From Candidatus Spongiisociaceae bacterium (GTDB lineage: Bacteria > Actinomycetota > Acidimicrobiia > Spongiisociales > Spongiisociaceae): 64,000 nucleotides of DNA. Under the pieces are notes generated by a model. That model made no database searches and was not told where the DNA came from. It saw nothing but the letters and a program-made list of their open reading frames with translations. Positions 1,799 to 36,373 of this stretch are shown piece after piece. The stretch is from contig OZ253564.1 of NCBI GenBank assembly GCA_965262915.1, forward strand, positions 736,001 to 800,000. The letters run 5' to 3'. A program made the translations under genes and the position numbers. Position 1 is the stretch's first letter. Each line of letters opens with the position of its first letter.

Positions 1799-3019
1799 TC
1801 AAGCTGCGGCTCGGTCGATGGTGGTTCGGTGTGCCCATGCGGTGTGTTCGTTGTAGGGGGTTTGGTGTTTGAGGCAGCCGTGGAGGATGCCGACGAGTCG
1901 GTTGGCGAGGGCTCGGAGTGCTTGGTGGTGGAGGTCGTCGGCTGCTCGGCGTTTGTCGTAGAAGGCTCGGGCTCCTGGACTGTTCTTTAGGGAACAGAAC
2001 GCCCATTGGTCCAGGGCGTTGGGGAGACGCCGGTTACGGACCTGGCGAGCCAGGACAGCGTGCTTGCGGCCTGACGCCACTGTGATGGGCGACGTGCCGG
2101 CGTAGTTCGTGGGGGACTTGGCGCTGGTGTAACGGTCGGGGTCGTCCCCGAACTCACCGAGCGCCCGGGCGCCGAGCACAGTACCGAGTCCTGGCTGAGA
2201 CAGGTAGATGTCGGCGTCCGGGTGTTCTCTAAAACGGGTCTCGAGGGTTGCTTGGAGGTCTGCGATCTGGCGGTTGGTTTCCACAATGAGTTTCACCAGT
2301 GCCCCAACAGTCGCCCCGAAGGCGTCCGCGACCGGCCCCGGCGCGGTGAGATGGCGGGTACGGAGACCTTTCTGTATGCGGCGGGCAACCTTGTCGAGGT
2401 TGCGTCGCCGTCCGCCCCTCTGTAGCGCTGCTCGGATCTGGGGCAGTGTCAGGCGGGCGCCCAGGATTGGGGTGGGTGCCCGACCGAGTATGGCCACAGC
2501 GTCGCGATGGGCCAGGTCATCGAAGGTTTCCAGCGCTGCGGGATAGTACTCGCGCAGGGCGTTGCGGACTTGGTTGGTGTGACGCGTCCGAGCCCAGATC
2601 AGGTTCTGATGCGTTCTGGCCATGATCTTGATCGCGTCTGATTCGGGGCTGTCACCGGCCACCGAACGATGGTTGTGACGGTCGGTGCGTACCAAATCAG
2701 CTAACACCTTGGCATCACCGCGGTCTGATTTCGCTCCGCCCAGGCTGTGACGGTCCCGGTAGCGGGACACAGCCCTAGGATTGATCGCATACACCAAATA
2801 GCCCGCTGCGATGAGCGCACCCACCCACAGCCCACGATCGGTCTCGATCCCTACCACCACCTCAGCTGCATCCGATGCGTGTTCGGCGACCAACTGGTGG
2901 AAGCGGGCTATACCTTGGATCCCTTCCGGGAGACGGGCGAAACCCAGCCGGGTCCCATCCTCGTCCATCAGATACACATCATGGTGGCCCTCAGCCCAGT
3001 CGTTACCCACAAATATCAT
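1799..3019 (-). CDS. IS110 family transposase (bridge recombinase)
   Basis: DEDD motifs GNDWAE..HD, GIET, KSDRGDA. C-terminal YAGTSPITVASG, typical of the Transposase_20 domain. Confidence 0.95.
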   Translation of the reverse strand: MIFVGNDWAEGHHDVYLMDEDGTRLGFARLPEGIQGIARFHQLVAEHASDAAEVVVGIETDRGLWVGALIAAGYLVYAINPRAVSRYRDRHSLGGAKSDRGDAKVLADLVRTDRHNHRSVAGDSPESDAIKIMARTHQNLIWARTRHTNQVRNALREYYPAALETFDDLAHRDAVAILGRAPTPILGARLTLPQIRAALQRGGRRRNLDKVARRIQKGLRTRHLTAPGPVADAFGATVGALVKLIVETNRQIADLQATLETRFREHPDADIYLSQPGLGTVLGARALGEFGDDPDRYTSAKSPTNYAGTSPITVASGRKHAVLARQVRNRRLPNALDQWAFCSLKNSPGARAFYDKRRAADDLHHQALRALANRLVGILHGCLKHQTPYNEHTAWAHRTTIDRAAA

Positions 3020-3039
3020 CCCTTCCTCCTTCAACGGGG

Positions 3040-3255
3040 ATCGATCCTTGCCGAGCTGTAGAACACGCCTGGCGGCGACCTAATGGATCAGTGCTCTGTG
3101 GCACGCCACCCCATGAGCGCTACAAGCGGCCCTCGCGAACCGGCCGGGGTACGATCTGGCACTAGGAATCAGCGTTCCGGGTGCCACCAGTACTCACCGG
3201 CCAGCCAGCTCAACCACCACACCCTCCCAGACAAACCAGCAGAAGTGGTGGACCC
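3040..3255 (-). ncRNA. Putative IS110 bridge RNA
   Basis: Contains guide-like 7-mers matching the target flanks (TGGCACC at 3180-3186, GTGCCAG at 3156-3162) and the element ends (TGGGGTG at 3107-3113, CCATTAG at 3080-3086). Exact RNA ends are uncertain. Confidence 0.8.
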
Positions 3256-3260
3256 CCATT

Positions 3261-3314
3261 AGGTGTCAGGTGTCGGTTGCCAGGTGTCGGTTGCTGTTGA
3301 CGATCATCAAGTAC
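3261..3314. repeat. Heptamer (YCAGGTG-like) tandem repeat plus conserved TGCTGTTGACGATCATCAAGTAC motif
   Basis: aggtgtcaggtgtcggttgccaggtgtcgg. The 23-mer recurs inverted at 8065-8087. Confidence 0.8.
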
Positions 3315-3396
3315 GGTGGATTTCGCCCCGGATCCCTTGGAACCAACCCTCTAGTATGGAGGTCGTGCTTGTACCTGCGGCAGAAGGGGTGATGGA

Positions 3397-4857
3397 GTGA
3401 GGGCTGTGCGGGTTGCGGGGGCGCTGGTCATGGTGGTGTCTGTTCTGACGCCGGGAACCTGGGATGTGGTGGAGGCTCAGACGACGGTAGCTGGTTTGTG
3501 CGACGCGGGGTCGGTGGCACAGTTCAGTGATGTGGGTGCGGGTGATTATGGAGCGGAGTACACAAAGTGTATGAGAGCGTTGGGTTTGTCGCTTGGTAGA
3601 GGCGACGGGTCTTATGGGCCTGACTTGGAACTGACGCGGGCGCAGATGGCCTCGTTCTTGGTGCGGCTCTGGGAGGACGTGTTAAGGAAGCAGTGCCCGA
3701 AGGCTGTGGATGCGCCGTTCACTGATGTGGCTGGTAATACCCACGAGGAGAGTATTGGCTGCTTGTACGGTCTGGATATCACCAAGGGTACGACGGCGGT
3801 GACCTATGGGCCGGGTGAGAAACTGAAAGTTACCCAGATTTCACTGTTCCTGGTTCGTGTCTACGAAAAGGCCGGAAACCGCTGCGGCGTTGCGGGCGAT
3901 GGCCTTGAGCGGGCGGTGGCATGCCTGGCTACGTTGAGGGTTATACCGTCGGAGTCTGAAGGCAGCAGCCTCGGGTTCGTGACCAGAGACCAGATGGCCG
4001 TGTACATGGTCGGGTTGTGGCACAACATGGTCGGCCGGGGTCTACCGCCACGACCACCGGCAAGGCCGGCCGACGGCACCTACACCACCGTATCGGCCGG
4101 TCGGTATCACTCGTGCGGTCTACTCTCTGACGGGACCATCGAATGCTGGGGCAACAACGAATCAGATCAGCTGAACGCTCCCGATGGGCGGTACCTCTCC
4201 GTATCGGCCGGTGGGGACCATTCGTGCGGTGTGCGCTCTGACGGGGCTATCAGATGCTGGGGTGACAACGATGATGGCAAGTTGAGTGTGCCTGCAGGGG
4301 AGTACAGTTCCGTATCGGCTGGCGGGGACCATTCGTGCGGTCTGGGTTCTGACGGGAGTATTGAATGCTGGGGCAGCAACGACTCCGGCCAGGTGAACGC
4401 CCCCCGCGGTGAGTACCTCTCCGTATCGGCCGGGGGGGACCATACCTGCGGTCTACGCTCTCACGGTCGCGTCAGATGCTGGGGTGACAACGATGACGGC
4501 CAGGTGAGAGACCCAGCAGGGGAGTTCATTTCCGTATCGGCCGGCAGGTTCCATTCGTGCGGTGTGCGCCCTGACGGGAGCGTCGAATGCTGGGGCAGCA
4601 ACGAATTCGGTCAGGCGACCCCTCCCGGTGGGCGGTACCTCTCCGTATCGGCCGGTGGAGACCATACCTGCGGTGTGCGCACCAACCACCTGATCAGATG
4701 CTGGGGCAACAACAAGTTCGGCCAACTAAACGCACCCGACGTGCGCTTCAACGCTGTCTCGGCCGGCAGGTTCCATACCTGCGGTGTGCGCACCAACCGC
4801 GCCATCACATGTTGGGGCAACAACCGCTTCGGCGAGGTGGACACACCCGGCGGGTAG
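3397..4857 (+). CDS. Secreted SLH-domain protein with RCC1-like repeats
   Basis: Signal peptide, SLH motif (YGPDLELTRAQMASFL) and seven VSAGxxHxCG..DG...CWG repeats. Confidence 0.9.
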   Translation: MRAVRVAGALVMVVSVLTPGTWDVVEAQTTVAGLCDAGSVAQFSDVGAGDYGAEYTKCMRALGLSLGRGDGSYGPDLELTRAQMASFLVRLWEDVLRKQCPKAVDAPFTDVAGNTHEESIGCLYGLDITKGTTAVTYGPGEKLKVTQISLFLVRVYEKAGNRCGVAGDGLERAVACLATLRVIPSESEGSSLGFVTRDQMAVYMVGLWHNMVGRGLPPRPPARPADGTYTTVSAGRYHSCGLLSDGTIECWGNNESDQLNAPDGRYLSVSAGGDHSCGVRSDGAIRCWGDNDDGKLSVPAGEYSSVSAGGDHSCGLGSDGSIECWGSNDSGQVNAPRGEYLSVSAGGDHTCGLRSHGRVRCWGDNDDGQVRDPAGEFISVSAGRFHSCGVRPDGSVECWGSNEFGQATPPGGRYLSVSAGGDHTCGVRTNHLIRCWGNNKFGQLNAPDVRFNAVSAGRFHTCGVRTNRAITCWGNNRFGEVDTPGG

Positions 4858-5556: not shown

Positions 5557-5637
5557 TCGGGCAGCGTCCGTGTCGTGGACACCGACAACAACACCATCGT
5601 CGTGGTCAGCGGCAACGCCGCCTTCCTGATCGAGGAC
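5557..5637 (+). repeat. Partial duplicate of SLH gene segment ~1540-1616
   Basis: tcgggcagcgtccgtgtcgtggacaccgacaacaacaccatcgtcgtgg is nearly identical to 1539-1590. Confidence 0.85.
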
Positions 5638-5722
5638 TGGCACCTGGCACCTGGCACCTGGCACCTGGCACCTGGCCGCCTAGCACCTGGCGCCTAGCAC
5701 CTGTTGCGGGGTGTCAGGTACC
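5638..5722. repeat. Heptamer TGGCACC tandem repeat
   Basis: (tggcacc)n with degenerate units, followed by inverted ggtgtcaggtaccag. Confidence 0.9.
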
Positions 5723-7928: not shown

Positions 7929-8227
7929 ACAGGTGTCAGGTGTCAGGTGTCGGGTGTCAGTCCTTGATGATGGGTTCTGTGGCCAGCTACGGAACGGGCG
8001 AGTGGCCGACACAGATAAGGGCACCGAGAATCCTTCAGTCCCGCCAAACAGGTGCTAGGTGCCAGTACTTGATGATCGTCAACAGCACCCGACACCCGAC
8101 CCGACACCCGACACCTGGCACCTGACACCCGAGACCTGACACCCGACACCTAAAACCTGGCCCCCGGCACCTGGCACCCGATACCTGACACCTGGCACCT
8201 GACACCTGGCACCCGATACCTGACACC
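7929..8227. repeat. Opposed heptamer arrays (CAGGTGT / GRCACCY)
   Basis: Forward units at 7929-7960 and 8048-8064. About 20 reverse units at 8085-8227, abutting the stop codon of the next gene. Confidence 0.9.
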
Positions 8228-10047
8228 TACTGTGCGGCGAAGTTGCGACCTCGGAGCAGGTAGCCGGCTACCTGGGCCCGGGAGTTGGAATCCCACGGGC
8301 AGAACTTCAGCGGGTCGGCCGAGCAACTGCCGGTGATCCCGGCTGCGTACGACGAGTCGATGTTCGGGGCGTGGACGGTCCGGGCGGTGTCGACGAACCC
8401 CACCGGCTCCGCCGCGGGTAGGGCGAACGCCCGCTTGAGCAAGGTGGCCATCTGCGCCCGGGTCACCTCCGTCTCGGGGCAGTACTTATCGGGATCCTCC
8501 GTGCACCCGAGCGTAACGTTCAGATCCGCAAGACGCTCGACGTAGGGTGCCCACCACACCTTGGGATCCACATCGGTGAAGCGCACCGAGGACACCGGAT
8601 CGGGATCCATCCCGTCGAGCACGCGTACGAACCACACCGCGGCTTCCCAACGGAGGAGCGGTCCACCCGGGCACAAGAGACCCTCGCTGCATCCGGTGTC
8701 TTCGAACACCCCCTCCCCGTAGAGGATACGCACAGCCCTCGTGTGCTCTCCTGCCGAGTCGAGATCCGAAAAGCTGTCCGTGTCGGTCGAATCCGGTTCC
8801 CCGCCGTTGTTGTCGCCGCCGTTGTTGTTGTTGTTGCCTCCGGCGTCGGTGCCTCCGGTGTTGGTGCCTCGGGTGTTGGTGCCTCCGCCTCCGTTGTTGG
8901 TGCTGCCTCCGTTGTTGGTGCTGCCGCCGTTGGTGTTGCCGGGGTTCTGTTCCGTGACATCGATACTTACCTCAACGGTGTCGCTTGCCAGCATGGGATC
9001 GGTGGCCTTGACCGTGACCATGTATCCGCCCGTGTCCAGGGGATGCCCGTTGGTCCTTATCTGGCCGGTATCGGGCTTTATCCGGAACGTATCGGTATCG
9101 CCGCCCTCCAGGCTGTAGGTCAGGGGGTCGTTGTCCGGATCCGAGGCTGTCACGGGGGCTCCGACAGGGCTGTCCATCCTCGCGTTCTTCGAGACCGCCC
9201 GATCGACTGACTCGGTGCCGAAATCAGGCGGCGAGTTCGACCCGTTTACGGGGTTGCCGGGTACGCGGTCCTCCGAGACAGTATGGGCACACGCCGGCTG
9301 GTAGTCGAGATTGTCATAGAAGACTTCGGGCCGCAGATAGTGCCCTGCATCTTCCGCCCTGGGTGTATAGCTGTCCGTGTAGCGTGCGACGATCGTCCAA
9401 GGGCCATCCGGGCGAACCGAGCGAGCCCACGTCCATTGCTCCCTGGTTGCGCCGGCGGGATCGTGCAGAGTAGCGGTCAACGTCACGCCCACGAGCGGAT
9501 ACAACGACTGTACCGACACCGATGGGAGCAACTCCTGGTGCGGGCGGCTCAGATCGTTGGCCGGGATTCTGAGTCCCAGGACTCCGAGGAAGGCCTTGGC
9601 GTCGGAATCGTTGTCGCGCCAGAGGCCCTCGATACCGATGACCTCGCACTGTTCGGCGTCGTTGTCGTTCCGTACGTTGATCCTGGCGTAGGCGGATGTC
9701 TCTCCGGCCGGGATGACGATCTTACGGTCATACAAGGTGTTGCCGATCGACGGCAGCGAGCTTCCGTTCGAGCCGGTGATGGTGAAGTCCGCTTGGCTGC
9801 CTTCCGTTGCCGTTCCGCGGATCGCCAGGTACACGTGCCTGTCGACCTCGTCGGGTTGGCCGTCGCCAAAAGAGAAGATCAGCTTCGCGCGACGGCCCTC
9901 ACGGAAGTCGGAGGCATCGACAAACATGTGGATATCCGGATCTTCGCCGTTGTTCTGGGCCGAGGCGGGAACCATCAGAAACAGGACGCCCGCGACAAGA
10001 GGGACGAATGCAACACTCGCCGCCTTCAGCAGACGCCCTAACTTCAT
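8227..10047 (-). CDS. Secreted protein with Calx-beta-like and cadherin-like domains, Gly/Asn/Thr linker and C-terminal SLH
   Basis: Signal peptide. PVTASDPDNDPLTYSL..IKPDTGQI cadherin motif. Cys-SLH motif YCPETEVTRAQMATLL. Confidence 0.88.
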   Translation of the reverse strand: MKLGRLLKAASVAFVPLVAGVLFLMVPASAQNNGEDPDIHMFVDASDFREGRRAKLIFSFGDGQPDEVDRHVYLAIRGTATEGSQADFTITGSNGSSLPSIGNTLYDRKIVIPAGETSAYARINVRNDNDAEQCEVIGIEGLWRDNDSDAKAFLGVLGLRIPANDLSRPHQELLPSVSVQSLYPLVGVTLTATLHDPAGATREQWTWARSVRPDGPWTIVARYTDSYTPRAEDAGHYLRPEVFYDNLDYQPACAHTVSEDRVPGNPVNGSNSPPDFGTESVDRAVSKNARMDSPVGAPVTASDPDNDPLTYSLEGGDTDTFRIKPDTGQIRTNGHPLDTGGYMVTVKATDPMLASDTVEVSIDVTEQNPGNTNGGSTNNGGSTNNGGGGTNTRGTNTGGTDAGGNNNNNGGDNNGGEPDSTDTDSFSDLDSAGEHTRAVRILYGEGVFEDTGCSEGLLCPGGPLLRWEAAVWFVRVLDGMDPDPVSSVRFTDVDPKVWWAPYVERLADLNVTLGCTEDPDKYCPETEVTRAQMATLLKRAFALPAAEPVGFVDTARTVHAPNIDSSYAAGITGSCSADPLKFCPWDSNSRAQVAGYLLRGRNFAAQ

Positions 10048-13742: not shown

Positions 13743-13746
13743 TCGT

Positions 13747-13786
13747 GTCAGGTGTCAGGTGTCAGGAGTCAGGTGTCAGGTGCTAG
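13747..13786. repeat. Heptamer TCAGGTG array directly after a stop codon
   Basis: gtcaggtgtcaggtgtcaggagtcaggtgtcaggtgctag. Confidence 0.9.
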
Positions 13787-17729: not shown

Positions 17730-20700
17730 CTAGAGGTTGGCGGCTGAGTCACCCACAGTTGACGTTCCGGGGTCAGATCCACCTGCGTCTTGGGTTATCG
17801 TGATCGTGGTGTGGGGTGTGGTGGATACCACGGTGATGGTGTAGCCACGGATGGTGACACTTTCTCCATCGGTCAGGATTGGGAACCCTTTGATGTGTCC
17901 GGTACCTGGATCACCAGCCACCTTCACGGGGAGTTCGCCTGTGGCGATGGCGGCGTCCACCGTGTAGATGAGTACACCTTCTGCGGGTAGTGCAGGGAGG
18001 AGAGTCTCGTTTCCCTCAGGGGTTCGGTATTCTGTACCTGTGTCATAACCCAGGTTACGTCTGTTTTCGATGACAATCACTTCAGTGTCAGACAAGGGAA
18101 CAGCCACCATGCCTATCCCTGCCCCGGGGTCAGCGACGGGACTCAGGGTGACGGTCACCTCAGATTCGGTCACACAGAGAATCTGGGCGGTGTCGAGCCA
18201 GCCCAGCTGCCAGCGGCTCCATGCCAGCATTTCAAGAGCCTCCAGCGAGTTTGCGTAGCCGGTGGATCGCGATCCGTCCGGATGTTGTCATACATGAGCA
18301 ACTCGGGGGTCACCTTGGGAAGATACCGGGAAGTTGACCCGCATGCCCATGAGACCGAATCTGGCGTGAGCCCAGGTCCGGCCACGGGGTGTGTACTCCG
18401 CTCGGTGGCGGCGTAAGTCGTAGGGCCCGAGGTCCAGTAGCCCGAGATTGTGGACCAGTTCGTGGGCGCCTACCCGTCCTTGGTGGTACGTCGGACCTGA
18501 TGGGAATGCGTTCATGCGGAGAGTTGAGACAGTGCCTTCATCGGTCTGGACTGATCCAAGAGCGTTGCCTCCACTGAAGTGGGCGCTGGGCATGAGAACT
18601 ATCAGGGCGTCGATGCCCGTGAAGTCGAAGTCGGGATCCGCCAACCGTACAGCTTCCCTATCTACCTCATGTCTCAGTTCAGGGATTCCATAAGGGCTGG
18701 TGTAGATGTGGTCCCGGTAGTTGAACTCTGCCCTTAGCCACCGGTCCAGAGACACGAACTCCAAGTCGAGCTTGCCGTAGCTGGAGGTCTCCAGATACTT
18801 CTCCATGTAGCGAAGCACCGATTCTGCCTCATGTGCCACCGATGTGGTTGCTTGAGCGTCTGGGAAGTCCACGAAGAGCACCGCTACCCGTACAGTCCCG
18901 GTTGAGGGCACCGCCCGGCCGGGCAGGGGGAACCCGGCTGTCGTACCCTCCACGCCCTTCGGACGGCACATCCGGGGGTCCGGACCCTGGGTCCATGGAG
19001 CTTGTTGCACGGCAGCCGGAAACGAGACAACCGGGTCTCGACCCCAGCAGGTGACGGTTCCGTTGGTGCGGATTCCACACGAGTGGGCTCCTTCGGCGGT
19101 AACTGCTGTGAACTCCCCTTGGGGGGCGTCGGTCTGACTATCGGAGTTTCCTCCCCAGCAGACGACTGTCCAGTCGTTGCGGACTCCACACGAATGCTCA
19201 AACCCGGCAGCAACCGAGCTGAACTGCCCCTCGGGAGCGTCCGCCTGATTCTCCCAGTTGCCACCCCAGCAGGCAACCGTCCCATCGGTGCGGACTCCAC
19301 ACGAATGCCCGTATCCCGCGGACACCGTGCTGAACTGCCCCTCGGGAGCGTCTGCCCGACCGGCCCAGTTCGAACCCCAGCAGGTGACCGTCCCATCGGT
19401 GCGGACTCCACACGAATGCCCGTATCCGGCAGCAACCGTGCTGAATTGCCCCTCGGGAGCGTCCGCCCGACCGGCCCAGTTCGAACCCCAGCAGGCAACC
19501 GTCCCATCGGTGCGGACTCCACACGAATGCCCGTATCCGGCAGCAACCGTGCTGAATTGCCCCTCGGGAGCGTCCGCCCGGCCCCACCAGTTCTCTCCCC
19601 AGCAGGCAGCCGTCCCATCGGTGCGGACCCCACACGAATGAGCGAACCCGACGGTCAAACCTAGAAACGTTCCGTCTGGTGGGTCGACACGCCCCCCTCC
19701 TCCATAACCCCAGCAGGCAACGGTCCCATCGGCACGGACTCCACACGAATGCCCACCCCCCGTCGAAACAGCGCTGAACTTTCCTTGCGGAGCCTCCGGT
19801 CGACCATCGGTGTTCTCTCCCCAGCAGGCCACCGTCCCATCGCTGCGAACCCCACACGAATGGAACTCTCCCGCCGATACGGCACTGAACTTTCCTTCGG
19901 GTGGGTCAGATCGACCATCGGTGTTCTCTCCCCAGCAGGCCACCGTCCCATCGCTGCGAACCGCACATGAATGGGTTTCCCCCGCCGATACAGCGCTGAA
20001 CTTCCCCCAGGGAGCGTCTGCCCGGCCCCACCAGTTCTCTCCCCAGCAGGCCACCGTCCCATCGCTGCGAACTCCACACGAATACCCACTCCCGGCGGAC
20101 ACCGCTGCGAACTTGCCCTCGGGAGCGTCAACCCGACCGTCCGAGTTCGCACCCCAGCAGACAACCGTCCAATCGGTACGGATCCCACACGAATGAGCGT
20201 CCCCCGCCGATACAGCGCTGAACCTCCCCTCGGGGGCGTCCACCTGATCCCCCCAGTTCGCACCCCAGCAGACAACCGTCCCCTCAGTACGGATCCCACA
20301 CGAATACCCATACCCGGCGGACACCGCGCTGAACTCCCCCTCCGGAGCGTCAGCCTGATCCCCCCAGTTCGTACCCCAGCAGACAACCGTCCAATCGGTA
20401 CGGATCCCACACGAATGCCCATTCCCGGCGGACACCGCTCTGAACTCTCCCTGCGGCGCGGCAGCCTGACCGTCCCAGTTCCCACCCCAGCAGACAACCG
20501 TCCAATCAGTACGGATCCCACACGAAAAACCATTGCCACTGGAAACCGTTGCGAACCCCCCATCCTGGGGTGGTTGGTCAGGCCGAACCGAACCGAACCG
20601 CAGAGCACGGCTCAAGAACGTTGCCATCTGACCACGAGTGGTTTCCCGCCGGGGACAGTACCGAGCCGGGCTAGTCGAACACCCCGCCGTCACACCCACA

Positions 20701-27499: not shown

Positions 27500-27870
27500 G
27501 ACCGAAGCGGCATCCCTTTGACGAGCTGTTGGGCTCCGACGCCTCGAACTTGTGCTGCTTGACATCGATCAGGTCCAACCGTCCCGACCAGCACTGCTGC
27601 GTTCTGCCCGCCGGGCCCGGGTCGTGGGTGTTCGGGGCAAGGGAAGAACCCAGCGCACAGTGTTCCTGTCCGTCGACGCCCGCCGTGCCCTGGCCGGCTA
27701 CCTGGAGGTGGAACGACCGTTCGACGCCACCGACGAGTCCACCGCGTTGTTCCTGTCCGCTGTTTCGGTGAGCAGCCGCCCCCCGACGGGCGGCTCTCCG
27801 GGCGCAGTGTCAACACCGTCCTCGAACGTATCGGCCGGCTCCACGACGCGGAACACACCGAACCCGTACG
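27500..27870 (+). pseudogene. Tyrosine recombinase remnant
   Basis: ELVLLDIDQV, VRGKGRTQRTVFL, ALFLS and, in a shifted frame, GRLSGRSVNTVL. Confidence 0.7.
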
Positions 27871-27872
27871 GT

Positions 27873-29033
27873 TCAACCTACGCGTGGTGGAGGGAACACA
27901 ACCCGGAAGCTGGGCAGTTCCCCGCGGATCGGAACCTGTCCCGTTATGACCTGTTCAAGATGTTCACCCTGGTCCGGAGCGAGGATCCCCGCTGGGCGGC
28001 GGTGGACACCAGGGTGGGCCGGGGTGTCATCTGTCGTTTCGACCGGACGACCAAGTCTTTTTACAAGCGCTGCAGCAGGGAAGGGACCAAGCCCGGATAT
28101 CCCCGTTTCAAGCCCCGACACCGGTGGAGGAGCATCGAGATAGTGAACGCCGGGGCCCAGATGCTCGTACCGCCGGGTCCCGGGGGTCGATGGTGGCGTC
28201 TGCGGGTCAAGGGAGTCCCCGCAGCCAGGTTCTGCGATGGCAACGGACGGCTGGCCGCCGCTCTCGATGCTGGCACGGTGGTGGAGCTGTGGGTGGTGCG
28301 CACCCCGTTGCGGGTGGAGTTGCATGTGGTGGTCGGACACGACGCGGATACCACTGTGGTGTCCGCTCCTCTGAACCCGGTGGGGATAGACAAGGGCCTG
28401 TCGACGCGGATGGCACTGTCCGACGGGCGGTACGTACCGGCGCGGACCATCGACAATCAGGTTGTCCGCCGGTACCAGCGTCGCCTGGCGCGAGCACAAC
28501 GGGGATCTCGGTCCCGGGCCAAGAAGCGGGCTGCTGTGGCCAGGGTCCGGCGCAGGGAAACCGAGAGAGCCCGGGCGGCGGACTTCCGCCTGGCCCACGA
28601 CCTCGTTACTTCCTTCGACGGCGTCGCCGTCGAGGACCTCAACATCGCGGGACTGCTCCGCTCCCGCAGATACTCCAAGAAGATGTCGGAACAGCGGTGG
28701 GGTACCTTCGACCTCGTACTGGGACACAAAGCCGAGAAAGCTGGTGTCCCGTATGTGAAGGTGAGCCCTTCCCATACCAGCACAGATTGCTCCCGATGCG
28801 GGCATCGCCAGCCGATGCCGCTCGGAACCAGAGTCTATCGGTGCGGGAGTTGCCGTCTCAGCCTGTGCAGGGACGTCAACGCCGCCAGGAACATATGCGC
28901 CCGGGCCTTCCCACAGGTCCGGGGTCGGGAGGGGCCACCACCTGACGCGGCGCGCTATACAAACAACCACCGTGAGACCGACTCGCCCCCTAGGGCAGGG
29001 ACGCAAGTGGTCGCCGCAGAACAGTATGCCTGA
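27873..29033 (+). CDS. tnpB: TnpB RNA-guided endonuclease (IS200/IS605-type), N-terminus missing
   Basis: PGYPRFK, VGIDKG (RuvC-I), VAVEDL (RuvC-II), TSTDCSRCG..CGSC zinc finger, RDVNAARNI (RuvC-III). Confidence 0.88.
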   Translation, partial: STYAWWREHNPEAGQFPADRNLSRYDLFKMFTLVRSEDPRWAAVDTRVGRGVICRFDRTTKSFYKRCSREGTKPGYPRFKPRHRWRSIEIVNAGAQMLVPPGPGGRWWRLRVKGVPAARFCDGNGRLAAALDAGTVVELWVVRTPLRVELHVVVGHDADTTVVSAPLNPVGIDKGLSTRMALSDGRYVPARTIDNQVVRRYQRRLARAQRGSRSRAKKRAAVARVRRRETERARAADFRLAHDLVTSFDGVAVEDLNIAGLLRSRRYSKKMSEQRWGTFDLVLGHKAEKAGVPYVKVSPSHTSTDCSRCGHRQPMPLGTRVYRCGSCRLSLCRDVNAARNICARAFPQVRGREGPPPDAARYTNNHRETDSPPRAGTQVVAAEQYA

Positions 29034-29494: not shown

Positions 29495-30575
29495 TTATGG
29501 CAGGGGTGTGGAGTCGTCCTGCAGATACGTTGCCCATGCTGCCATGAGTTGGCGGCGTCGGTCGAATAGATCTGTGCGTAGGTATGCGGCTTCGACCTGG
29601 TTGCGGTTCTGGTGGGCCAGTGCAGCCTCGGCGACTGATCTGGGTGTGTCTGTGCATTCCTCTACCCAGACGCGAAAACTCGAACGGAAGCCGTGGGGCA
29701 CGCAGGAGATCCCGAGCCGGTGGAGTATTGCCCCGACGGTACTCTTGCCGATCTGACCGCCGCGCGCGCCTGGGAAGATCAGCCCGCTGCTGTTTCGGTA
29801 CTGGTGAGCTTCGTGCAGGATTGCAATGGCGCGTGTCGCCAGTGGCACACGGTGTTCCCGGCTCTTTTTCGTCCTCTTGGCCGGAATCGTCCAAGTCGCC
29901 TTCTCGAAGTCTATTTCGAGCCATTGCGCGAGCCTGGCTTCTGTGGGTCTCGTTGCGGTGAGTATCTGGTATTCGAGTAGCAGGATGCTGGTCGGGTAGG
30001 CACTCGACCAGCGTACCTGCTGGAGGGCTGCCGCGACCTGATCATGGGGCAGCGCCGGGTGATGCCGAGACCCACTGCTGTGCTTGGGCAGCGCGGCGGT
30101 GATGGCCTCCCCGGCCGGGTTGTCGGGCCGATGCCCCGCGGCTATCGCCCACAGCATTATCGCCGAGATTTCCCGTTTCACTGTCTGAGCAGTGGGGTTC
30201 TTTTCGTGCCATATTGGAGTTAGGAGGCCCATGACGTCAGCGGTGGTGATTCGGTCTACCCGTTTGCTGCCCAGCGTCGGGTACGCGTAGTTCTTGAGGG
30301 TGGATCTCCACCTGTGTTCCGTCTTGCTACCGGGTTTCCAGCCTTTGGAGTACAGCTGGATAACTTTCTCGGCCGCCTCAGCGAAGGTCGGCACCCCGCC
30401 GCCCCGGGGATCTTGTCCCTGTTCTGCCAGCCGACGATTGTTGAATGCCTTTCGTCGGGCTTCGGAGAGTTTGACCAATGGATAGCTTCCGAGGCCGATG
30501 TTGGTGAGGCGGCCGCCAATCCGGATTCGCTGAATCCACGACTTTCGTACTCCAACGTTTCGCCCATTAGCGTGC
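29495..30575 (-). CDS. P4-like tyrosine integrase with a degraded arm-binding N-terminus
   Basis: KSWIQR..GLGSYP.VKLSEAR, LTATRPTE, HGFRSSFR, LAH, AY.R catalytic motifs. Confidence 0.88.
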
Positions 30576-33387
30576 CCGACCTACTGTGCGTATCCGATAG
30601 AGAGTGCCCGCCCCTAGGCATATTCTACCCGAAAGGACGCTGCTGTGTAGCGTTCCTGCCATGCGTTGAACTCGACGACCTGCACGCAGAAGCGGGTACG
30701 TCAGGTACGGGGTTAAGCCTGGCAGAAGACATCGGCGTTGGTAACTCCCCTCGTCGCGACTGGGCTGTGCGAGACTACTGGATGTCGTCTGGAGACGAGG
30801 GTCAGGCCCGGCTAAGCCGTTCGATTCTCAGTCAGCGAGAAGAGGAGACAGATTCCGGCTGAGGAGGTGACAGACTCCCGGGACCCCTACCATTACCCCT
30901 GGTCAGGGGTGGTCGCGAAGACCCCGCCCTCGACGCGGTGCTGTTCCTAGCCCACCGCAGGTCGATGGTCGACATCATCCAGGCCGTCGGACGGGTCATG
31001 CGAACCGCCGCGGGGAAAGAACGCGGTTACATCATCCTGCCCGAAGGGAAAACCCGTATCGACGACGCCGTTCTGCGCAGCCCAAGGTTCAAGCCGGTCT
31101 GGGACGTGATCCGGGCGTTACGAGCCCACGACAAACGGATGGACGTGTGCGTCAACACCGCCGACAAAGGCGGCAAACCACCCATAAACGTTATAGGCGG
31201 CGCCGACGGCGACGACACCGACAACACGGATGACGGTAGGGGGTTGGACACTGCCACCGTTGTGCAGATGACCCTCCCCATGAACTCCGAAATCGCGTCG
31301 GCGCTGGTCGAAATCTGCGGGGACCGCACGTATTGGGCGACTTGGGGAGACGACGTAGGAGAAGTCACCCGAACCGTCTCAGCCCGCATCAGCCGACTCA
31401 TCGGATCCCGGCCGCACACTGCGGAAGCGTTCGGACGGTTCCTCACAGAGATGCGTCAGACGATCAACGAACACCTACAAGAAGCCGACCTCGTCGACAT
31501 GTTGGCCTGCCACATAGTCACGCTGCCCGTGTTCAACGCCCTGTTCGGCTCCGCCGCGTTCGCTTCCCTCAACCCGGTTGTTGCTGCGTTGAACCAGATG
31601 GTGGACACGCTGGACCGGGACCACATCCGAGCCGACACCGCCCGCCTCGACCGCCTATACGACAGCGTGACCGAACGGGTCCGCCAGGTCACCGACCCCG
31701 AAGGCCGCCTCAAAATCCTGCTCGAACTGTACGAATCGTTCTTCGCGAAAGGCATGAAACGGGAAACCGACCGGCTCGGCGTCGCCTACACCCCCATCGA
31801 GCTGGTGGACTATGTTCTCCGATCAGCCGACCGGCTCTCCCAGCACCACTTCGGCAAGGGCCTATCAGACCCCGACGTTCATGTGTTGGACCCGTTCACC
31901 GGAACCGGCACCTTCATCAACCGGCTACTCACCATCAACGACAGCAACGGCCGGCCGCTTATCACAGACGAAGACCTGGACCGCAAATACACAGCCGAGA
32001 TACACGCCAACGAAATGCTGCTGTTGGCCTACTCCATCGCCGCCGTCAAAATCGAAGAAGGACGGCGCCAACGCCGACCCACAGCGACTACCAGCCATTC
32101 GCAGGCATCGTCCTGTGCGACACGTTCAACAGCCAACCCGACCAGCAACAGCTCGACACCCTGTCAGGCAACAGCCGACGGGCCGAACAACAAGCCGGCC
32201 AACGCATCGACGTCATAGTCGGGAACCCGCCCTGGTCCGCAGGACAGAGAACCGCCGCCGAGGACAACCCCAACATCGTGTACCCACAACTGCGGGAACG
32301 CATCCGCGAACCCTACGCGGCGCGCAGCACCGTTACGTTGAAGGCGGCCTTGTACGATTCGTACAAGCTGGCGATCCGGTGGGCCACCGACCGCATCGGC
32401 GACCAAGGCATCGTCGCGTTCGTCACCCCCAACTCGGTGCTCGACGGCAACGCCGAATCCGGGCTCAGAGCCTGCCTAGCCGACGAATACCACAGCCTGT
32501 ACCTACTCAACCTACGCGGCGACGCCCGCCTCTCCGGCGAAGCCAGGAGGCGGGAAAAGGGCAACGTCTTCGGCAGCAGCACGAGGGTGGGCATACTCGT
32601 ATCCGTACTGGTCAAACACCCCCACCAGCCACATCCCGACCGCCAGACCCGCATCTGGTACCACAACATCGGCGACTACCTCACCACAGACCAGAAAAAA
32701 CAGGCCCTCCAAGACATGGGGCATGCGCCGACGAGCGGCGACGGGGAAGGCTGGCAACGGATCAAACCCGACAGCAACCACGACTGGATCAACCAATCCG
32801 ACCCCACCTGGCAACACCTAATGCCCCTCGGGGACAAGACCACCAAACAGGCAGCCCTGCGCGGGTCGGCTGGATCGGGCGCTGACTCCCCGACTGTGTT
32901 CCACATCTACTCGTCCGGCCTCAAGACCAATCGCGACCCATATGTGTACGACTACGACAAGGACGGTCTGGAAGAACGGGCCGAAGCAATGGTCGACGAA
33001 TACGAACACCAACGCGACCGTGTGAGCACCGGGGAGGCGACGGTCGACCAAGCCACCCGAAACGTCAGACCACATGTCATCAAATGGACGGGTGACCTGC
33101 GACCACGGCTACGACGCGGCCTGCGCGCCACCTACGACGAACGGAACATTCGGGAAGTCCACTACCGGCCGTTCACCAAGATGTGGCTCTACTACGAACC
33201 GCTGTTCCTCAACAGGGTCTACCGCATCCCCATCATGTTCCCTCACCGTCCCGACGGCGCGAACCAGGCGATAGTCGTAGCGGGGAGGGGATCGACCCGT
33301 GAGTTCTCGACGGTGGTGACGGACACAGCACCGGACCTGGAGCTGGTGTCCAAAGGTCAGGTGATGCCAAGAACCACCCATCATAAT

Positions 33388-33439
33388 CCGACCGACCGAC
33401 CGACCGACCGACCGACCGACCGACCGACCGACCGACCGA
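33388..33439 (+). repeat. (CCGA)13 simple sequence repeat inside the type ISP TRD
   Basis: 52 nt, 13 perfect units. Confidence 0.97.
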
Positions 33440-33569
33440 TCAGGTCATCTACATCACCGGGCCGGGAGCATCGGTCGGGTTCTCAACACTCGTCAGCGAC
33501 TGTCCCCCGGACCTGCATCTGCTGTCAGGCGGACAAGCGTTCCCCCGATACACCCACCCGACCGGATGA
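33438..33569 (+). other. Alternative TRD cassette 2
   Basis: DQVIYITGPGASVGFSTLVSDCPPDLHLLSGGQAFPRYTHPTG*, paralogous to the in-frame segment at 33262-33378. Confidence 0.85.
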
Positions 33570-33709
33570 ATCAGGTGATCAGCATGACCGGACCAGGCTG
33601 GAAAGGCCCCTTCTCGACGCTGATAAGCGACATCCCTCCGGACATCCAGTTCATGGGCAACGGTCAGGCGTTCCCCCGGTACACGTATCCGAAGGAGACC
33701 AGCCGATGA
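33566..33709 (+). CDS. Alternative TRD cassette 3 (47-aa mini-ORF)
   Basis: MNQVISMTGPGWKGPFSTLISDIPPDIQFMGNGQAFPRYTYPKETSR*, with ATGA overlaps at both ends. Confidence 0.8.
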   Translation: MNQVISMTGPGWKGPFSTLISDIPPDIQFMGNGQAFPRYTYPKETSR

Positions 33710-34684
33710 CCGCCGGCACTACTCCGATGCTGGACTTGGGGGACCTAGACCCCACCGGCGACCGGCCCGACGACCAAGGCCGGGTGGACAACATCACCGA
33801 CTGGTGCCTCAACCAGTTCCGCAGCCGCTACCAGGACCCTGCCATCACCAAAGACCACATCTGGGCATACATATACGGAGTGATGCACGCCCCCGACTGG
33901 CGAACCAGATACGCGAACGATCTACGCAAAGGTCTACCCCGCATCCCCTACACCGACGACTTCTGGCCGTTCGCCCAGGCGGGCCGGGAGCTGATCGACC
34001 TACACGTCGGCTACGAAACCTGCGAACCGTATCCGCATGTGCGAGTGCTGGTAGACGGGCAGGCGGCCGACCCGGACCGTGACAGCCCCGACGTGTACCG
34101 TATCGATAAGCCGATACGCTGGGCCAGAACCCGCGGCGAAGACAGGAAACTCGCCAACGACCTGAGCGTGCTCGTGGTCAACGACCGGTGCCGAATCGAA
34201 GACATCCCCCCGGAAGCGCACGAGTATGTGGTCAACGGGAAAACCCCCCGCTCGGCTGGGCCATCGACCGTCTACGGGCTACCCGTGACAAAACGAGCGG
34301 GATCACCCGCGACCCGAACCGGTGGCACACCTGGGCAGACCGGCCCTACAACCTGATCGAACACCTATGTAGGCTGATCACCGTGTCCGTCCGCACCGTC
34401 CGCATCGTCGACGGGTTGCCCCCCTCGCTGCCCCCAGACGACCCACGCCCCGCCGGCTGACCTATCGGAGAGGCCGGCTGGCGTAAGGTAGCTGGGTTGA
34501 CCCTGGTCCGCTGCCCAACCACACCCCACCGGTTCTCCCGGGAGAATCCACCACGACAACAACCCAACTGGCGCGCCGCTGATCCAAGTGAGCTGACTCC
34601 AAAAAAACCGGTCACCATCAACCGCCCCGCTTCAAGTCACGCGTATAATTCCCTTTGGATTGTGTTGACTCAGGGGATTAAGTT

Positions 34685-36373
34685 ATGAGACGGTTGGCGC
34701 TACTGGTCGCATGGGTGCTGGTGCTCGGAACAGTCGCGTCGGGAGCGTTACCGTCCACGCCACCCGCGGTGGCGCAGGAGACAACCGGGCCGCCGGAAAT
34801 ATGCGACACAGCCGCGGTGGAACAATTCACCGACGTCGCCGACGGTGAATACGCGTCCGCCTACGTGCTGTGCATGCGCTCTCTGGGCCTCTCGGTGGGA
34901 AGAGGAGCAGGAACCTACGGTCCTGACAGCCAACTCAACCGCGGGCAGATGGCATCATTTCTGGTGCGGCTGTGGCGTGACGTGCTGGGCAACCAATGTC
35001 CCACCGGAGTAGTCACGCCGTTCACCGACGTGCTCGACGACTCCACGCATACCAAGAACATCGAATGCATCTACGGACTGGAGATCACCACCGGCACCGG
35101 CCCCGACACCTACGGCCCCAGGGACCCGCTGAAGGCAACCCAGATCTCCCGATTCCTGTACCGCGTCTACAACAAAGCCGGCGGCGACATGTGCCCGAGC
35201 GCAGACGGGTCGGAACTCCACCGGGCCGCAGAGTGCCTGCTCCAACTCCGGGTCGTGCCCACCACCGGCGAAGCCACCGCCACCACCACCGTCACCCGAG
35301 CACAAATGGCCGTCTACATGGTAGGGCTATGGCACAACCTCTCAGGCAAAGGCCTACCACCCCCACCCCCACCCCTAGGCACCCCCACACCTGAGGCGAC
35401 CACCACCACTACTACCCAACCCACCCACACCGCACCCACCACCCAACGCATCGCCTACACGGTCAACAGATCCACAGCACTTGATCGCGTGCGGGGAGTC
35501 ACGACCACTGACGTCTGGGTTATGAACGCCGACGGAACCGACCAGAAACAACTCACCGACAACGGCTGGGGTCCGGTGTGGTCACCTGACGGAACCCGAA
35601 TCGCCTACACCGGCAGGCGCCTGACGGGCTCCAGAATCAGACCAAACCAGATCAATGAGGTCTGGGTTATGAACGCGGACGGAACCGACCAGAAACAACT
35701 CACCGACAACGGCTGGGGTCCGGTGTGGTCACCTGACGGAACCCGAATCGCCTACACAGTCGGACTCCGCGGAATCTTACGCGGAGTCCGGGTTATGAAC
35801 GCGGACGGAACCGACCAGAAACAACTCACCGACAACGGCATGAGTCCGGTGTGGTCACCTGACGGAACCCGAATCGCCTACGTAGCCCTCGGCCCGGACA
35901 CCGGAGTCCCGACCACTGAGGTCTGGGTTATGGACGCCGACGGAACCGACCAGAAACAACTCACCATCGGCGAGATCTCGGGGTCGTTTCTTCTGTCGTG
36001 GTCGCCTGATGGAACCCGAATCGCCTACCCAGGGGCAAACGGAGTCTGGGTCATGAACGCGGACGGAACCGACCAGAAACAACTCACCGACAACGGCTGG
36101 CGTCCGGTGTGGTCACCTGATGGAACCCGAATCGCCTACTCTAGGGCAAACGGAGTCTGGGTTATGAACGCGGACGGAACCGACCAGAAACAACTCACCG
36201 ACATCGGCCAGAGTCCGGTGTGGTCACCTGACTCTGGCCGAATCGCCTACTCTGGGAGCGGAGTCTGGGTCATGAACGCGGACGGAACCGACCGGAAACT
36301 GCTCTACTACAACCGCACCGCCGGGGATGGCGCGGGTCCGGTGTGGTCGCCCGTGGTCGTGCCGGAGGGTTAA
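34685..36373 (+). CDS. SLH-domain protein with TolB-like (PD40) beta-propeller
   Basis: Signal peptide. SLH region paralogous to 3397..4857. Repeats VWVMNADGTDQKQLT..PVWSPDGTRIAY. Confidence 0.92.
   Translation: MRRLALLVAWVLVLGTVASGALPSTPPAVAQETTGPPEICDTAAVEQFTDVADGEYASAYVLCMRSLGLSVGRGAGTYGPDSQLNRGQMASFLVRLWRDVLGNQCPTGVVTPFTDVLDDSTHTKNIECIYGLEITTGTGPDTYGPRDPLKATQISRFLYRVYNKAGGDMCPSADGSELHRAAECLLQLRVVPTTGEATATTTVTRAQMAVYMVGLWHNLSGKGLPPPPPPLGTPTPEATTTTTTQPTHTAPTTQRIAYTVNRSTALDRVRGVTTTDVWVMNADGTDQKQLTDNGWGPVWSPDGTRIAYTGRRLTGSRIRPNQINEVWVMNADGTDQKQLTDNGWGPVWSPDGTRIAYTVGLRGILRGVRVMNADGTDQKQLTDNGMSPVWSPDGTRIAYVALGPDTGVPTTEVWVMDADGTDQKQLTIGEISGSFLLSWSPDGTRIAYPGANGVWVMNADGTDQKQLTDNGWRPVWSPDGTRIAYSRANGVWVMNADGTDQKQLTDIGQSPVWSPDSGRIAYSGSGVWVMNADGTDRKLLYYNRTAGDGAGPVWSPVVVPEG

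Follow-up and report, generated by a model that had tools for sequence, protein, structure and literature searches.

The 64,000-nucleotide stretch of DNA analyzed in this study (the window; contig OZ253564.1 of the Candidatus Spongiisociaceae bacterium assembly GCA_965262915.1) carries on its forward strand a remnant of a Type ISP restriction-modification gene (30911 to 34454). A tblastn search with an intact ortholog (from the related genome G006, described below) aligned residues 592 to 1743 of that protein with this region in three frames, covering the end of the helicase, the coupler, the methyltransferase, and the target recognition domain (TRD). Inside the TRD coding frame lies a tetranucleotide repeat, (CCGA)13 (33388 to 33439, + strand; 100% matches in Tandem Repeats Finder [TRF]), which encodes a PTDR linker in every frame. 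The unit length is no multiple of three, and the frame in which the downstream sequence is read depends on the length of the tract. It was the sole tetranucleotide repeat with at least five units in a scan of the whole 5,055,038-base genome.

Three paralogous segments of about 41 amino acids, all belonging to the Type ISP TRD (cassettes c1, c2, and c3; + strand), lie around this repeat, and their starts fall in three different frames (1, 0, and 2 modulo 3, respectively). Cassette c1 (33262 to 33384; NQAIVV...PDLELVSKGQVMPRTTHH; NQAIVVAGRGSTREFSTVVTDTAPDLELVSKGQVMPRTTHH in the three-frame translation) is located 5' of the repeat. Downstream are c2 (33438 to 33560, with a TGA stop at 33567 to 33569; DQVIYIT...PDLHLLSGGQAFPRYTHPTG; translated as DQVIYITGPGASVGFSTLVSDCPPDLHLLSGGQAFPRYTHP) and c3, an open reading frame (ORF) of 47 codons that runs from the ATG at 33566 to the TGA at 33707 to 33709 (MNQVISMT...PDIQFMGNGQAFPRYTYPKETSR; translated as MNQVISMTGPGWKGPFSTLISDIPPDIQFMGNGQAFPRYTYPKETSR). 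Each cassette matched the Pfam family Type_ISP_C at about positions 102 to 158, and this was also the case when c2 (E = 3e-7) and c3 (E = 4.2e-6) were scanned alone. The N-terminal half of the TRD, which ends with c1 (32896 to 33396, + strand), matched Type_ISP_C positions 2 to 158 (119.8 bits in the Pfam scan of the window's own genome, G000, at 768896 to 769396). The C-terminal half, containing the core helices and the guide subdomain, is a separate ORF (33706 to 34356, + strand) that matched positions 164 to 304.

Reading frames around the repeat

Cassette c1 shares its frame with the upstream part of the TRD and with the C-terminal domain, and it is translated in all states. The last upstream stops in the c2 and c3 frames are at 33384 and 33362, respectively, so that both frames are open from just before the repeat. 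With 13 units, translation passes from c1 to the C-terminal half over about 90 codons in which c2 and c3 are read out of frame. Cassette c2 is joined in frame to c1 at 11, 14, or 17 units, and c3 at 12 or 15 units; starting from 13 units, a gain of 4 nucleotides (nt) brings c2 into the frame of c1, and a loss of 4 nt brings c3 into it. The C-terminal ORF is fused to c1 at 13 units and is translatable from its own ATG at other lengths.

The original prediction, which a model had made from the letters of the window, placed three paralogous segments at 33262, 33438, and 33566, one per frame, with (CCGA)13 between the first and the other two. It also proposed that all frames stay open past the repeat, that the number of units decides which cassette is read, and that the region belongs to the specificity domain of Type ISP enzymes. 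The segments were borne out by translation and Pfam, the repeat by TRF, the open frames by the positions of the last upstream stops, and the domain assignment by the Type_ISP_C matches. The frame arithmetic holds as well, and a natural 14-unit allele in genome G005 reads c1 into c2 and its stop. The description was right on every point that could be checked.

Condition of the window copy

The window copy is a pseudogene, because it is truncated at its 5' end and carries two further frame changes, a caveat that had accompanied the original prediction and that alignment with the ortholog confirmed. Homology begins at residue 592 of the G006 ortholog (30911 in the window; tblastn). The frame changes were located near 32079 to 32086 and near 34244 to 34248 by tblastn and DNA alignment; in the latter, the lesions appear as a gap of 1 nt near 32079 and, in a run of C near 34244, an insertion of 2 nt that cuts the C-terminal ORF short. 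The only Pfam domains detected were ISP_coupler, Eco57I, and Type_ISP_C, and the nuclease and most of the helicase are lacking. The catalytic motif IV (NPPW) of the methyltransferase is present in frame (VGNPPWSAGQR; about 32215 to 32247). Type ISP enzymes combine an Mrr-type nuclease, an SF2 helicase, a coupler, a gamma-class N6-adenine methyltransferase, and a TRD in one polypeptide. The remnant does not contain this complete domain set, and the family assignment is valid for the gene lineage. DNA homology to the orthologous loci is confined to 30923 to 34502, the flanks being different, and the Pfam scan of the whole genome detected only this Type_ISP_C locus.

Correspondence of the cassettes to a DNA-reading element

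When compared with solved structures (phmmer), the intact ortholog matched the archetypal Type ISP enzymes LlaGI (PDB 5FFJ; 5ffj_A, E = 3.8e-258) and LlaBIII (PDB 4XQK; 4xqk_A, E = 1.5e-247), with which it shares the domain order, and the TRD pieces of the window also gave matches. Cassette c1 was aligned to LlaBIII residues 1333 to 1376 and to LlaGI chain residues 1175 to 1219 (adding 164 to the LlaGI chain index gives the published numbering, as for H1368, G1372, and Q1373). As described by Kulkarni et al. (2016; PMC4872093), a beta-hairpin (1347 to 1358) touches the DNA backbone and Loop VI (1365 to 1374), and the base at +3 is read by LlaGI H1368 or LlaBIII N1360, together with LlaGI G1372 and Q1373. 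A glutamate (E) of c1 aligns with LlaGI H1368 and LlaBIII N1360, and the equivalent base-reading residue is H in c2 and Q in c3. On the basis of these alignments, the cassette corresponds to the beta-hairpin and Loop VI of LlaGI and LlaBIII. The mapping onto the structures that had been suggested with the original prediction thus places the cassettes on a DNA-contacting element and reveals differences at the residue that reads the +3 base. In LlaGI and LlaBIII, this element is present in a single copy without a repeat tract, and about 12 residues stand where the loci described here have at least 100 residues of repeat and out-of-frame cassettes.

An alignment of 18 cassettes from 7 loci revealed that the base-reading residue differs within each locus (E/H/Q, E/H, Q/N/H, H/N/D, N/H/Q, N/H, and H/D), while S16, P24, Q33, and P36 are invariant. 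The same loop types recur across phylum labels and in single-cassette homologs (e.g., PDLELVSKGQ in c1 and in cassette A of a locus labeled Rhodothermales). Among 30 single-cassette homologs, the residue types were H (9), N (6), Q (5), E (4), D (4), G (1), and K (1).

We also modeled the TRD of the G006 ortholog with AlphaFold2 (19 aligned rows; mean pLDDT, 65.3). In this model, c1 appears as four short strands, the C-terminal half is folded, and residues 272 to 370 (i.e., the repeat and the out-of-frame cassette) have pLDDT values of <50. The best structural matches were LlaGI, LlaBIII, and DrdV (Foldseek; E = 4.9e-26 to LlaGI).

The same layout in other genomes

When 61 genomes (the one containing the window and 60 relatives) were scanned with Pfam, 19 of them had matches, and several loci had extra matches to about positions 100 to 158 of Type_ISP_C. 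Two genomes, G005 and G017, carry the order c1, repeat, c2, c3, and C-terminal half. The G005 locus has (CCGA)14, so that c1 is read straight into c2 and its stop, and the G017 locus has three copies of an 8-mer at the repeat site, with c1 in frame with the C-terminal half. The G006 locus has (CCGA)21 and a frame that is intact over 1,743 to 1,744 amino acids, with the domains Mrr_cat_2, ResIII, Helicase_C, ISP_coupler, Eco57I/N6_Mtase, and Type_ISP_C. Its single downstream cassette is c2 up to a GG and c3 thereafter, owing to an exact 131-nt deletion between homologous points. A contig of G026 has (TC)26 at its start and, behind it, c2, c3, and the C-terminal half, and a metagenome contig (L089), whose C-terminal ORF is 96% identical, begins with (CAGC)30, followed by c2 and c3. 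Close orthologs therefore have four different repeat units at one site, and the number of CCGA units differs between related genomes (13, 14, and 21 in G000, G005, and G006, respectively).

Less closely related loci exhibited similar arrangements. Locus L066 (labeled Rhodothermales) has (CCGGACAA)21 followed by two cassettes, A and B, in different frames; cassettes A and B also follow (ACGA)12 in L067 and (CCAA)21 in L069, and they lie behind a replaced upstream part in L070 (labeled Acidobacteriota). Loci of this Rhodothermales type have no cassette 5' of the repeat. Three cassettes, one per frame, follow (GACA)23 in L094 and G9 in L103, and two cassettes were found at the start of the L092 contig. 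In L061, C9 separates c1 from c2, and in L013 (open frame of 1,470 amino acids), G11 lies inside Loop VI of the first cassette. Across the related loci, cassette arrays lie directly behind nine different repeat units or homopolymers. Of 46 loci, 12 had a repeat in a 750-nt window at the junction, within 700 nt 5' of the C-terminal match (32.8 kb in all; the G006, G005, and G017 loci are among the 46, as L058 to L060), compared with 5 repeats in 223 kb elsewhere. Thus, the genome search proposed with the original prediction uncovered loci combining cassettes with a repeat in further genomes, including the intact one of G006. Because cassette arrays lie behind a repeat in related loci of other genomes, the layout, as judged from these sequences, is not decay.

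In a class-wide census, in which a cassette model was applied to 301 genomes, no further cassette arrays were found. Among contigs assembled from sequencing runs, that of run X22 spans 33151 to 33606 with 20 fewer letters, and that of run X2 spans the repeat with 25 gap letters; the positions of the gaps were not shown in either alignment.

The homologs exhibited additional variations. A single-cassette homolog labeled Caldilineaceae (L073) has G15 between the cassette and the C-terminal half (2962 to 2976), which resembles a plain ON/OFF tract. ORFs containing only the C-terminal half of the TRD follow unrelated DNA in L063 (about 2950 to 3700), L065, L017, L018, L020, and L021, and in L063 such an ORF is followed by a complete new Type ISP gene. 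A dinucleotide repeat of 16 to 26 units is present in L017 and L018, and likely also in L020 and L021; that of L017 lies inside the C-terminal half and reads as (ER)n. In L027 (G026:C28; about 3195 to 3539), the contig has a further fragment of the C-terminal half, at a distance of about 2 kb downstream from the first one.

Selection on the cassette frames

We counted the variable sites at each codon position of the cassettes, in the own frame of each cassette, in an alignment of G000, G005, G017, and G026. The counts at the first, second, and third positions were 4/1/12 for c1 (P = 0.003), 5/3/17 for c2 (P = 0.001; chi-square test), 6/2/9 for c3 (P = 0.11), and 11/5/26 for c2 and c3 together (P = 0.0002). 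Between G000 and G017, the codon differences of c2 are 11 synonymous and 2 nonsynonymous when its own frame is read; in the read-through frame, the numbers are reversed (2 and 11). In the Rhodothermales/Acidobacteriota set, which is independent of the window set, the counts were 10/5/22 for cassette B in its own frame (P = 0.002) and 15/12/19 for cassette A (P = 0.45), whose type differs between the genomes of this set. The samples are small and the genomes within each set are related, so that each set represents one comparison. The read-through frame exhibited the opposite codon-position pattern in both the c2 and the cassette B comparisons.

These patterns indicate that c2 is under purifying selection in its own frame, with c3 following the same trend. 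Since the variation lies mostly at their own third codon positions, the downstream cassettes, to judge from the alignments, are or were translated in their own frames.

Cassette ends and the supply of the C-terminal half

Where the upstream sequence was available, the frame of each switchable cassette becomes open shortly 5' of the repeat. Cassettes from which translation does not continue to the C-terminal half are followed by a stop within 0 to 8 codons (with the exception of c2 of L061), and the stops examined were TGA in 18 of 18 cases. The stops of c2 and c3 mean that, in those states, the C-terminal half has to be made on its own, presumably by way of ATGA stop/start overlaps and a ribosome-binding site of its own. 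The window has two ATGA overlaps, one joining the c2 stop to the ATG of c3 and the other joining the c3 stop to the ATG of the C-terminal ORF; both are also found in G017 and G026. An ATGA overlap is present between c3 and the C-terminal ORF in L061 and at the stop of the first cassette in L092. In L094, the stop of the first cassette overlaps the ATG of the second-cassette ORF, and that of the third cassette overlaps the ATG of an 8-codon mini-ORF, whose own stop overlaps the ATG of the C-terminal ORF. A hexamer resembling a ribosome-binding site (AAGGAG; 33692 to 33697, + strand) lies 8 nt upstream of the ATG at 33706. It is kept in G005, G006, and G026 (i.e., in 4 of the 5 aligned sequences, with the window) and altered in G017. 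In five single-cassette homologs (L071, L073, L075, L076, and L079), no methionine was found between the cassette end and the NITD motif of the C-terminal half. Taken together, the sequences suggest that relays of termination and restart would keep the C-terminal half expressed in the non-fused states. Frameshift sites in the window (+1 at the c2 stop and -1 at the c3 stop) were also considered and rejected, as neither a slippery codon nor a heptamer was found; restart at the stop/start overlaps is preferred.

A different solution is suggested by other loci. The sequence GGGGG-TAT-CTT-TGA-C is located at the end of cassette B in L066 (at about 2990 to 3010), L067, and L069, and behind the second cassette in L013; in L070, the spacer is TGT (GGGGG-TGT-CTT-TGA-C). 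This motif contains all elements of the +1 frameshift site of prfB (release factor 2) as given in PMC12421855 (i.e., GGGGG, a 3-nt spacer, CTT, TGA, and C), and a +1 shift there would lead into the C-terminal frame. In the three genomes searched, the motif occurred once per genome, at this spot, while the reversed control did not occur (0). The Type ISP genes bearing the motif come from genomes labeled Rhodothermales, Acidobacteriota, and Acidimicrobiia, and a remnant labeled Aestuariivita (L078) has the variant GGGAGG-TAT-CTT-TGA-T. Locus L066 is open over the entire upstream 3 kb in the frame of cassette B, and a full-length product therefore needs a +1 shift; L067 sits in the third frame and stops early. 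In comparison with prfB, the site lies at the end of a recognition cassette in a restriction-modification gene, it is absent from the window locus, and frameshifting is predicted from the motif.

A candidate specificity switch and its alternatives

We consider it somewhat probable, from the sequence comparisons above, that slippage of the repeat switches the recognition specificity of one Type ISP gene and can also switch the gene off. The window would then hold a dead copy of a phase-variable restriction-modification gene, in whose working copies one slippery repeat in the TRD would decide which paralogous DNA-reading element is translated behind it. With 13 units (or 10, 16, and so on), c1 (E type) would be fused to the C-terminal half, with out-of-frame c2 and c3 serving as a disordered linker. 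With one more unit, c2 (H type) would be added behind c1 and followed by its stop, after which ribosomes would restart twice, first at the c3 mini-ORF and then at the C-terminal ORF, each time at the overlapping ATG. With one unit less, c3 (Q type) would be added and coupled directly to the C-terminal ORF. The added cassette would replace c1 in the fold and change recognition at one base. In related loci, one frame may simply be OFF.

The displacement of c1 is proposed by analogy. Krebes et al. (2014; PMC3936762) described a frameshift-mediated switch of specificity in the Type IIG enzymes Hpy99XIV (JHP1272) and HpyAXVI (HP1353-HP1354) of Helicobacter pylori. In their account, the protein gains a small domain that is a paralog of part of the TRD when a second homopolymer tract is in frame; the regular part is displaced or substituted by this domain, and recognition changes at one or two bases, as demonstrated by methylomes. 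We infer that c1 could likewise be displaced by the added cassette and that the C-terminal half could be delivered by restart or by frameshifting. Since c1 lies upstream of the repeat and is always translated, the choice is among c1 alone, c1 with c2, and c1 with c3, and not one of three cassettes. The original prediction had proposed that slippage selects among specificities instead of switching the gene off. Selection among specificities is supported by the mapping to Loop VI, the differences at the +3-reading residue, the own-frame selection (on c2, with a trend in c3), and the recurrence of the layout with different repeats. The proposal has to be amended in that c1 is present in every state and c2 and c3 end in stops, and the change of specificity is itself deduced.

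Several observations weigh against the specificity switch. Cassette c1 is present in all states, and there is no sign that c2 or c3 displaces it; the H. pylori precedent removes the objection that c1 is always present. The window copy is dead, and only the G006 locus is intact among the four complete loci of its type: the G005 gene is broken into four stop-to-stop pieces (966, 261, 436, and 365 amino acids), and G017 has one in-frame stop upstream. The restart at ATGA overlaps is deduced purely from sequence; the ATG of c3 has no ribosome-binding site, the stops of the window are not accompanied by a known frameshift motif (GGA TGA A for c2 and CGA TGA C for c3), and in L061 the stop of c2 comes only after 47 codons. 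The codon-position signal of c3 is not significant alone, and cassette A of the Rhodothermales/Acidobacteriota set has no third-position excess. L070 has no repeat, its upstream part having been replaced. The layout is rare, as the cassette model matched 2 of the 301 genomes sampled from the class (i.e., G000 and one single-cassette genome). The assembled contigs of runs X18 and X20 end at 33381 and resume at 33447, and they are silent on the length of the repeat. The AlphaFold2 model is of moderate quality (mean pLDDT as above; 51 to 68 in the c1 blocks). Finally, two random cassettes among the 30 single-cassette homologs share a type with a probability of 0.196. Since the types are so mixed among these homologs, the differences within loci are only weakly significant and constitute weak evidence, and the argument that cassettes in one locus always differ in type was dropped as too weak.

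Plain ON/OFF phase variation, in which the fused c1 form alone is active and c2 and c3 are leftovers of tandem duplication that now serve as linker DNA, is an unlikely alternative. ON/OFF switching driven by simple sequence repeats is the usual case in restriction-modification genes in the accounts used here, and c1 is fused to the C-terminal half in the intact G006 gene and in the G000 and G017 loci as assembled. The bare G15 of the single-cassette homolog L073, located between the cassette and the C-terminal half, and the stops at the ends of c2 and c3 also fit this explanation. It is at odds with the variation of c2 and of Rhodothermales cassette B, which lies at third positions of their own frames and not of the read-through frames, and with the retention of all conserved family positions in cassettes that differ at the base-reading residue. 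The ATGA overlaps and the complete prfB-like site lie exactly at cassette ends, and L066, otherwise open, has its reading frame set to cassette B; both observations also argue against mere leftovers.

The original prediction had offered a recombinational reservoir as an alternative, and the recombinant of c2 and c3 in G006 lends it some support. Here, the downstream cassettes would be mainly silent donors, and unequal crossing-over or gene conversion would swap the expressed cassette. We regard this as improbable. A silent donor needs neither an open frame from the repeat, nor selection in its own frame, nor a stop/start overlap or frameshift site, all of which were observed. Nevertheless, the hybrid cassette of G006 arose through an exact 131-nt deletion, cassette exchange is indicated by the first slot of the Rhodothermales/Acidobacteriota set, where E, N, Q, or E types stand within flanks that are otherwise alike, and TRD switching by recombination is well known from Type I hsdS systems in the literature used here. 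Directly upstream of the point at which the gene is cut off lie a tyrosine integrase/recombinase gene (29495 to 30478, - strand) and a TnpB/OrfB_IS605-type gene (27552 to 29033, + strand). The recombinase gene, however, adjoins the TnpB gene at the truncation point, and the flanks of the orthologs share no homology; inverted repeats were not searched for. Slippage and recombination may both act together.

A lack of function, through decay of a pseudogene family or an assembly artifact at the repeat, is highly improbable even though three of the four complete loci of the window's type carry other lesions and contigs break at the repeat in several assemblies, since the layout is found in independent assemblies and across lineages with labels of separate phyla, where the repeats occupying the common site differ, an intact ortholog possesses the full set of Type ISP domains, and the selection signal speaks against decay.

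Beyond the window, we give roughly an even chance to a broader picture drawn from the sequences of all these loci. There would be an enzyme family with up to three alternative DNA-reading loops in three frames behind one repeat, in which a gain or loss of one unit re-targets both methylation and restriction, while the rest of the protein is supplied by read-through, restart relays, or a prfB-type +1 frameshift. Such a family would be spread over bacteria labeled as at least four phyla.

Relation to known systems

By analogy, the window locus would work like the H. pylori Type IIG switch but is no member of that class. In both cases, as far as the published description of the H. pylori enzymes goes, the tract lies inside a combined restriction-methylation gene and is followed by a TRD-paralogous piece that is added when in frame, and the regular element is retained, c1 being its counterpart here. 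The enzymes differ in that those of H. pylori are Type IIG, whereas the present one is a helicase-bearing Type ISP enzyme. In H. pylori, a homopolymer near the 3' end adds one extra piece at the C terminus, giving two specificities, and a second tract provides ON/OFF control. Here, the middle of the TRD holds as many as three cassettes, each in its own frame, with tetra- to octanucleotide repeats, and the C-terminal half has to be reconnected through read-through, restart, or +1 frameshifting. Methylomes demonstrated the H. pylori switch, while the present one is predicted from sequence.

Two other kinds of variable systems share features with the locus. Phasevarions (simple sequence repeats in Type I hsdS or hsdM and Type III mod genes) also have a nontriplet repeat in the coding frame whose length varies between genomes, but in the accounts used here the outcome is ON/OFF switching or truncation of HsdS, and alternative recognition elements in other frames are not described. 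Type I hsdS shufflons likewise hold several recognition modules at one locus and provide several specificities per system; these accounts attribute this to site-specific recombination of whole TRDs, whereas slippage and frame choice would act here on a sub-element of 40 residues.

In the literature searched, we found no earlier description of a multi-frame cassette array or of a prfB-like site in a restriction gene. The claim, made with the original prediction, that the arrangement was undescribed can accordingly be kept for the multi-frame array, but not for the principle, since a frameshift-driven specificity switch is known from the H. pylori Type IIG enzymes. Four features seem to be new: the presence of as many as three cassettes, each in a different frame, behind one repeat; their position inside a Type ISP TRD; the turnover of the repeat unit between close orthologs; and the rejoining of the C-terminal half by restart relays or a prfB-like site.

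If the specificity switch is real, a clonal population could keep several restriction specificities from one gene without a recombinase, which would be a bet-hedging defense against phages carrying one acquired methylation pattern. The locus would also be a rare case of selected, homologous protein modules in all three frames of one DNA stretch. The recurring loop types (i.e., a single E, H, Q, N, or D in a conserved loop) would represent a natural experiment on the Type ISP recognition code, which was only partly derivable in the account of Kulkarni et al. (2016; PMC4872093). Moreover, a prfB-like site in a defense gene would tie the expression of one specificity state to the activity of release factor 2.

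Other repeats in the window and the genome

Downstream of the Type ISP remnant, an ORF at 34685 to 36373 encodes an SLH domain and PD40/TolB-like beta-propeller repeats, which are encoded by tandem DNA repeats of 111, 126, and 273 nt. Similar repeats of 111/222 nt are located at 4081 to 4791 and at 19153 to 20526. The window also contains heptanucleotide arrays at 5637 to 5703 (CTGGCAC; 9.4 units), 7930 to 7960 (CAGGTGT; 4.4 units), 8086 to 8228 (CACCTGA; 20.7 units), and 13745 to 13782 (GTGTCAG; 5.4 units). Genome-wide, exact 7-nt repeats of at least four units occur at 61 loci, and many of the listed units are related to GGCACCT/AGGTGCC. Very long homopolymers are present in the same genome (G000:C1), namely, G26, G24, G19, and five more of at least 13 bases (at 254049, 2884961, 237407, and other positions). 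The long G/C homopolymers were considered as marks of other phase-variable genes and were set aside, most of them having no long open frame around them.

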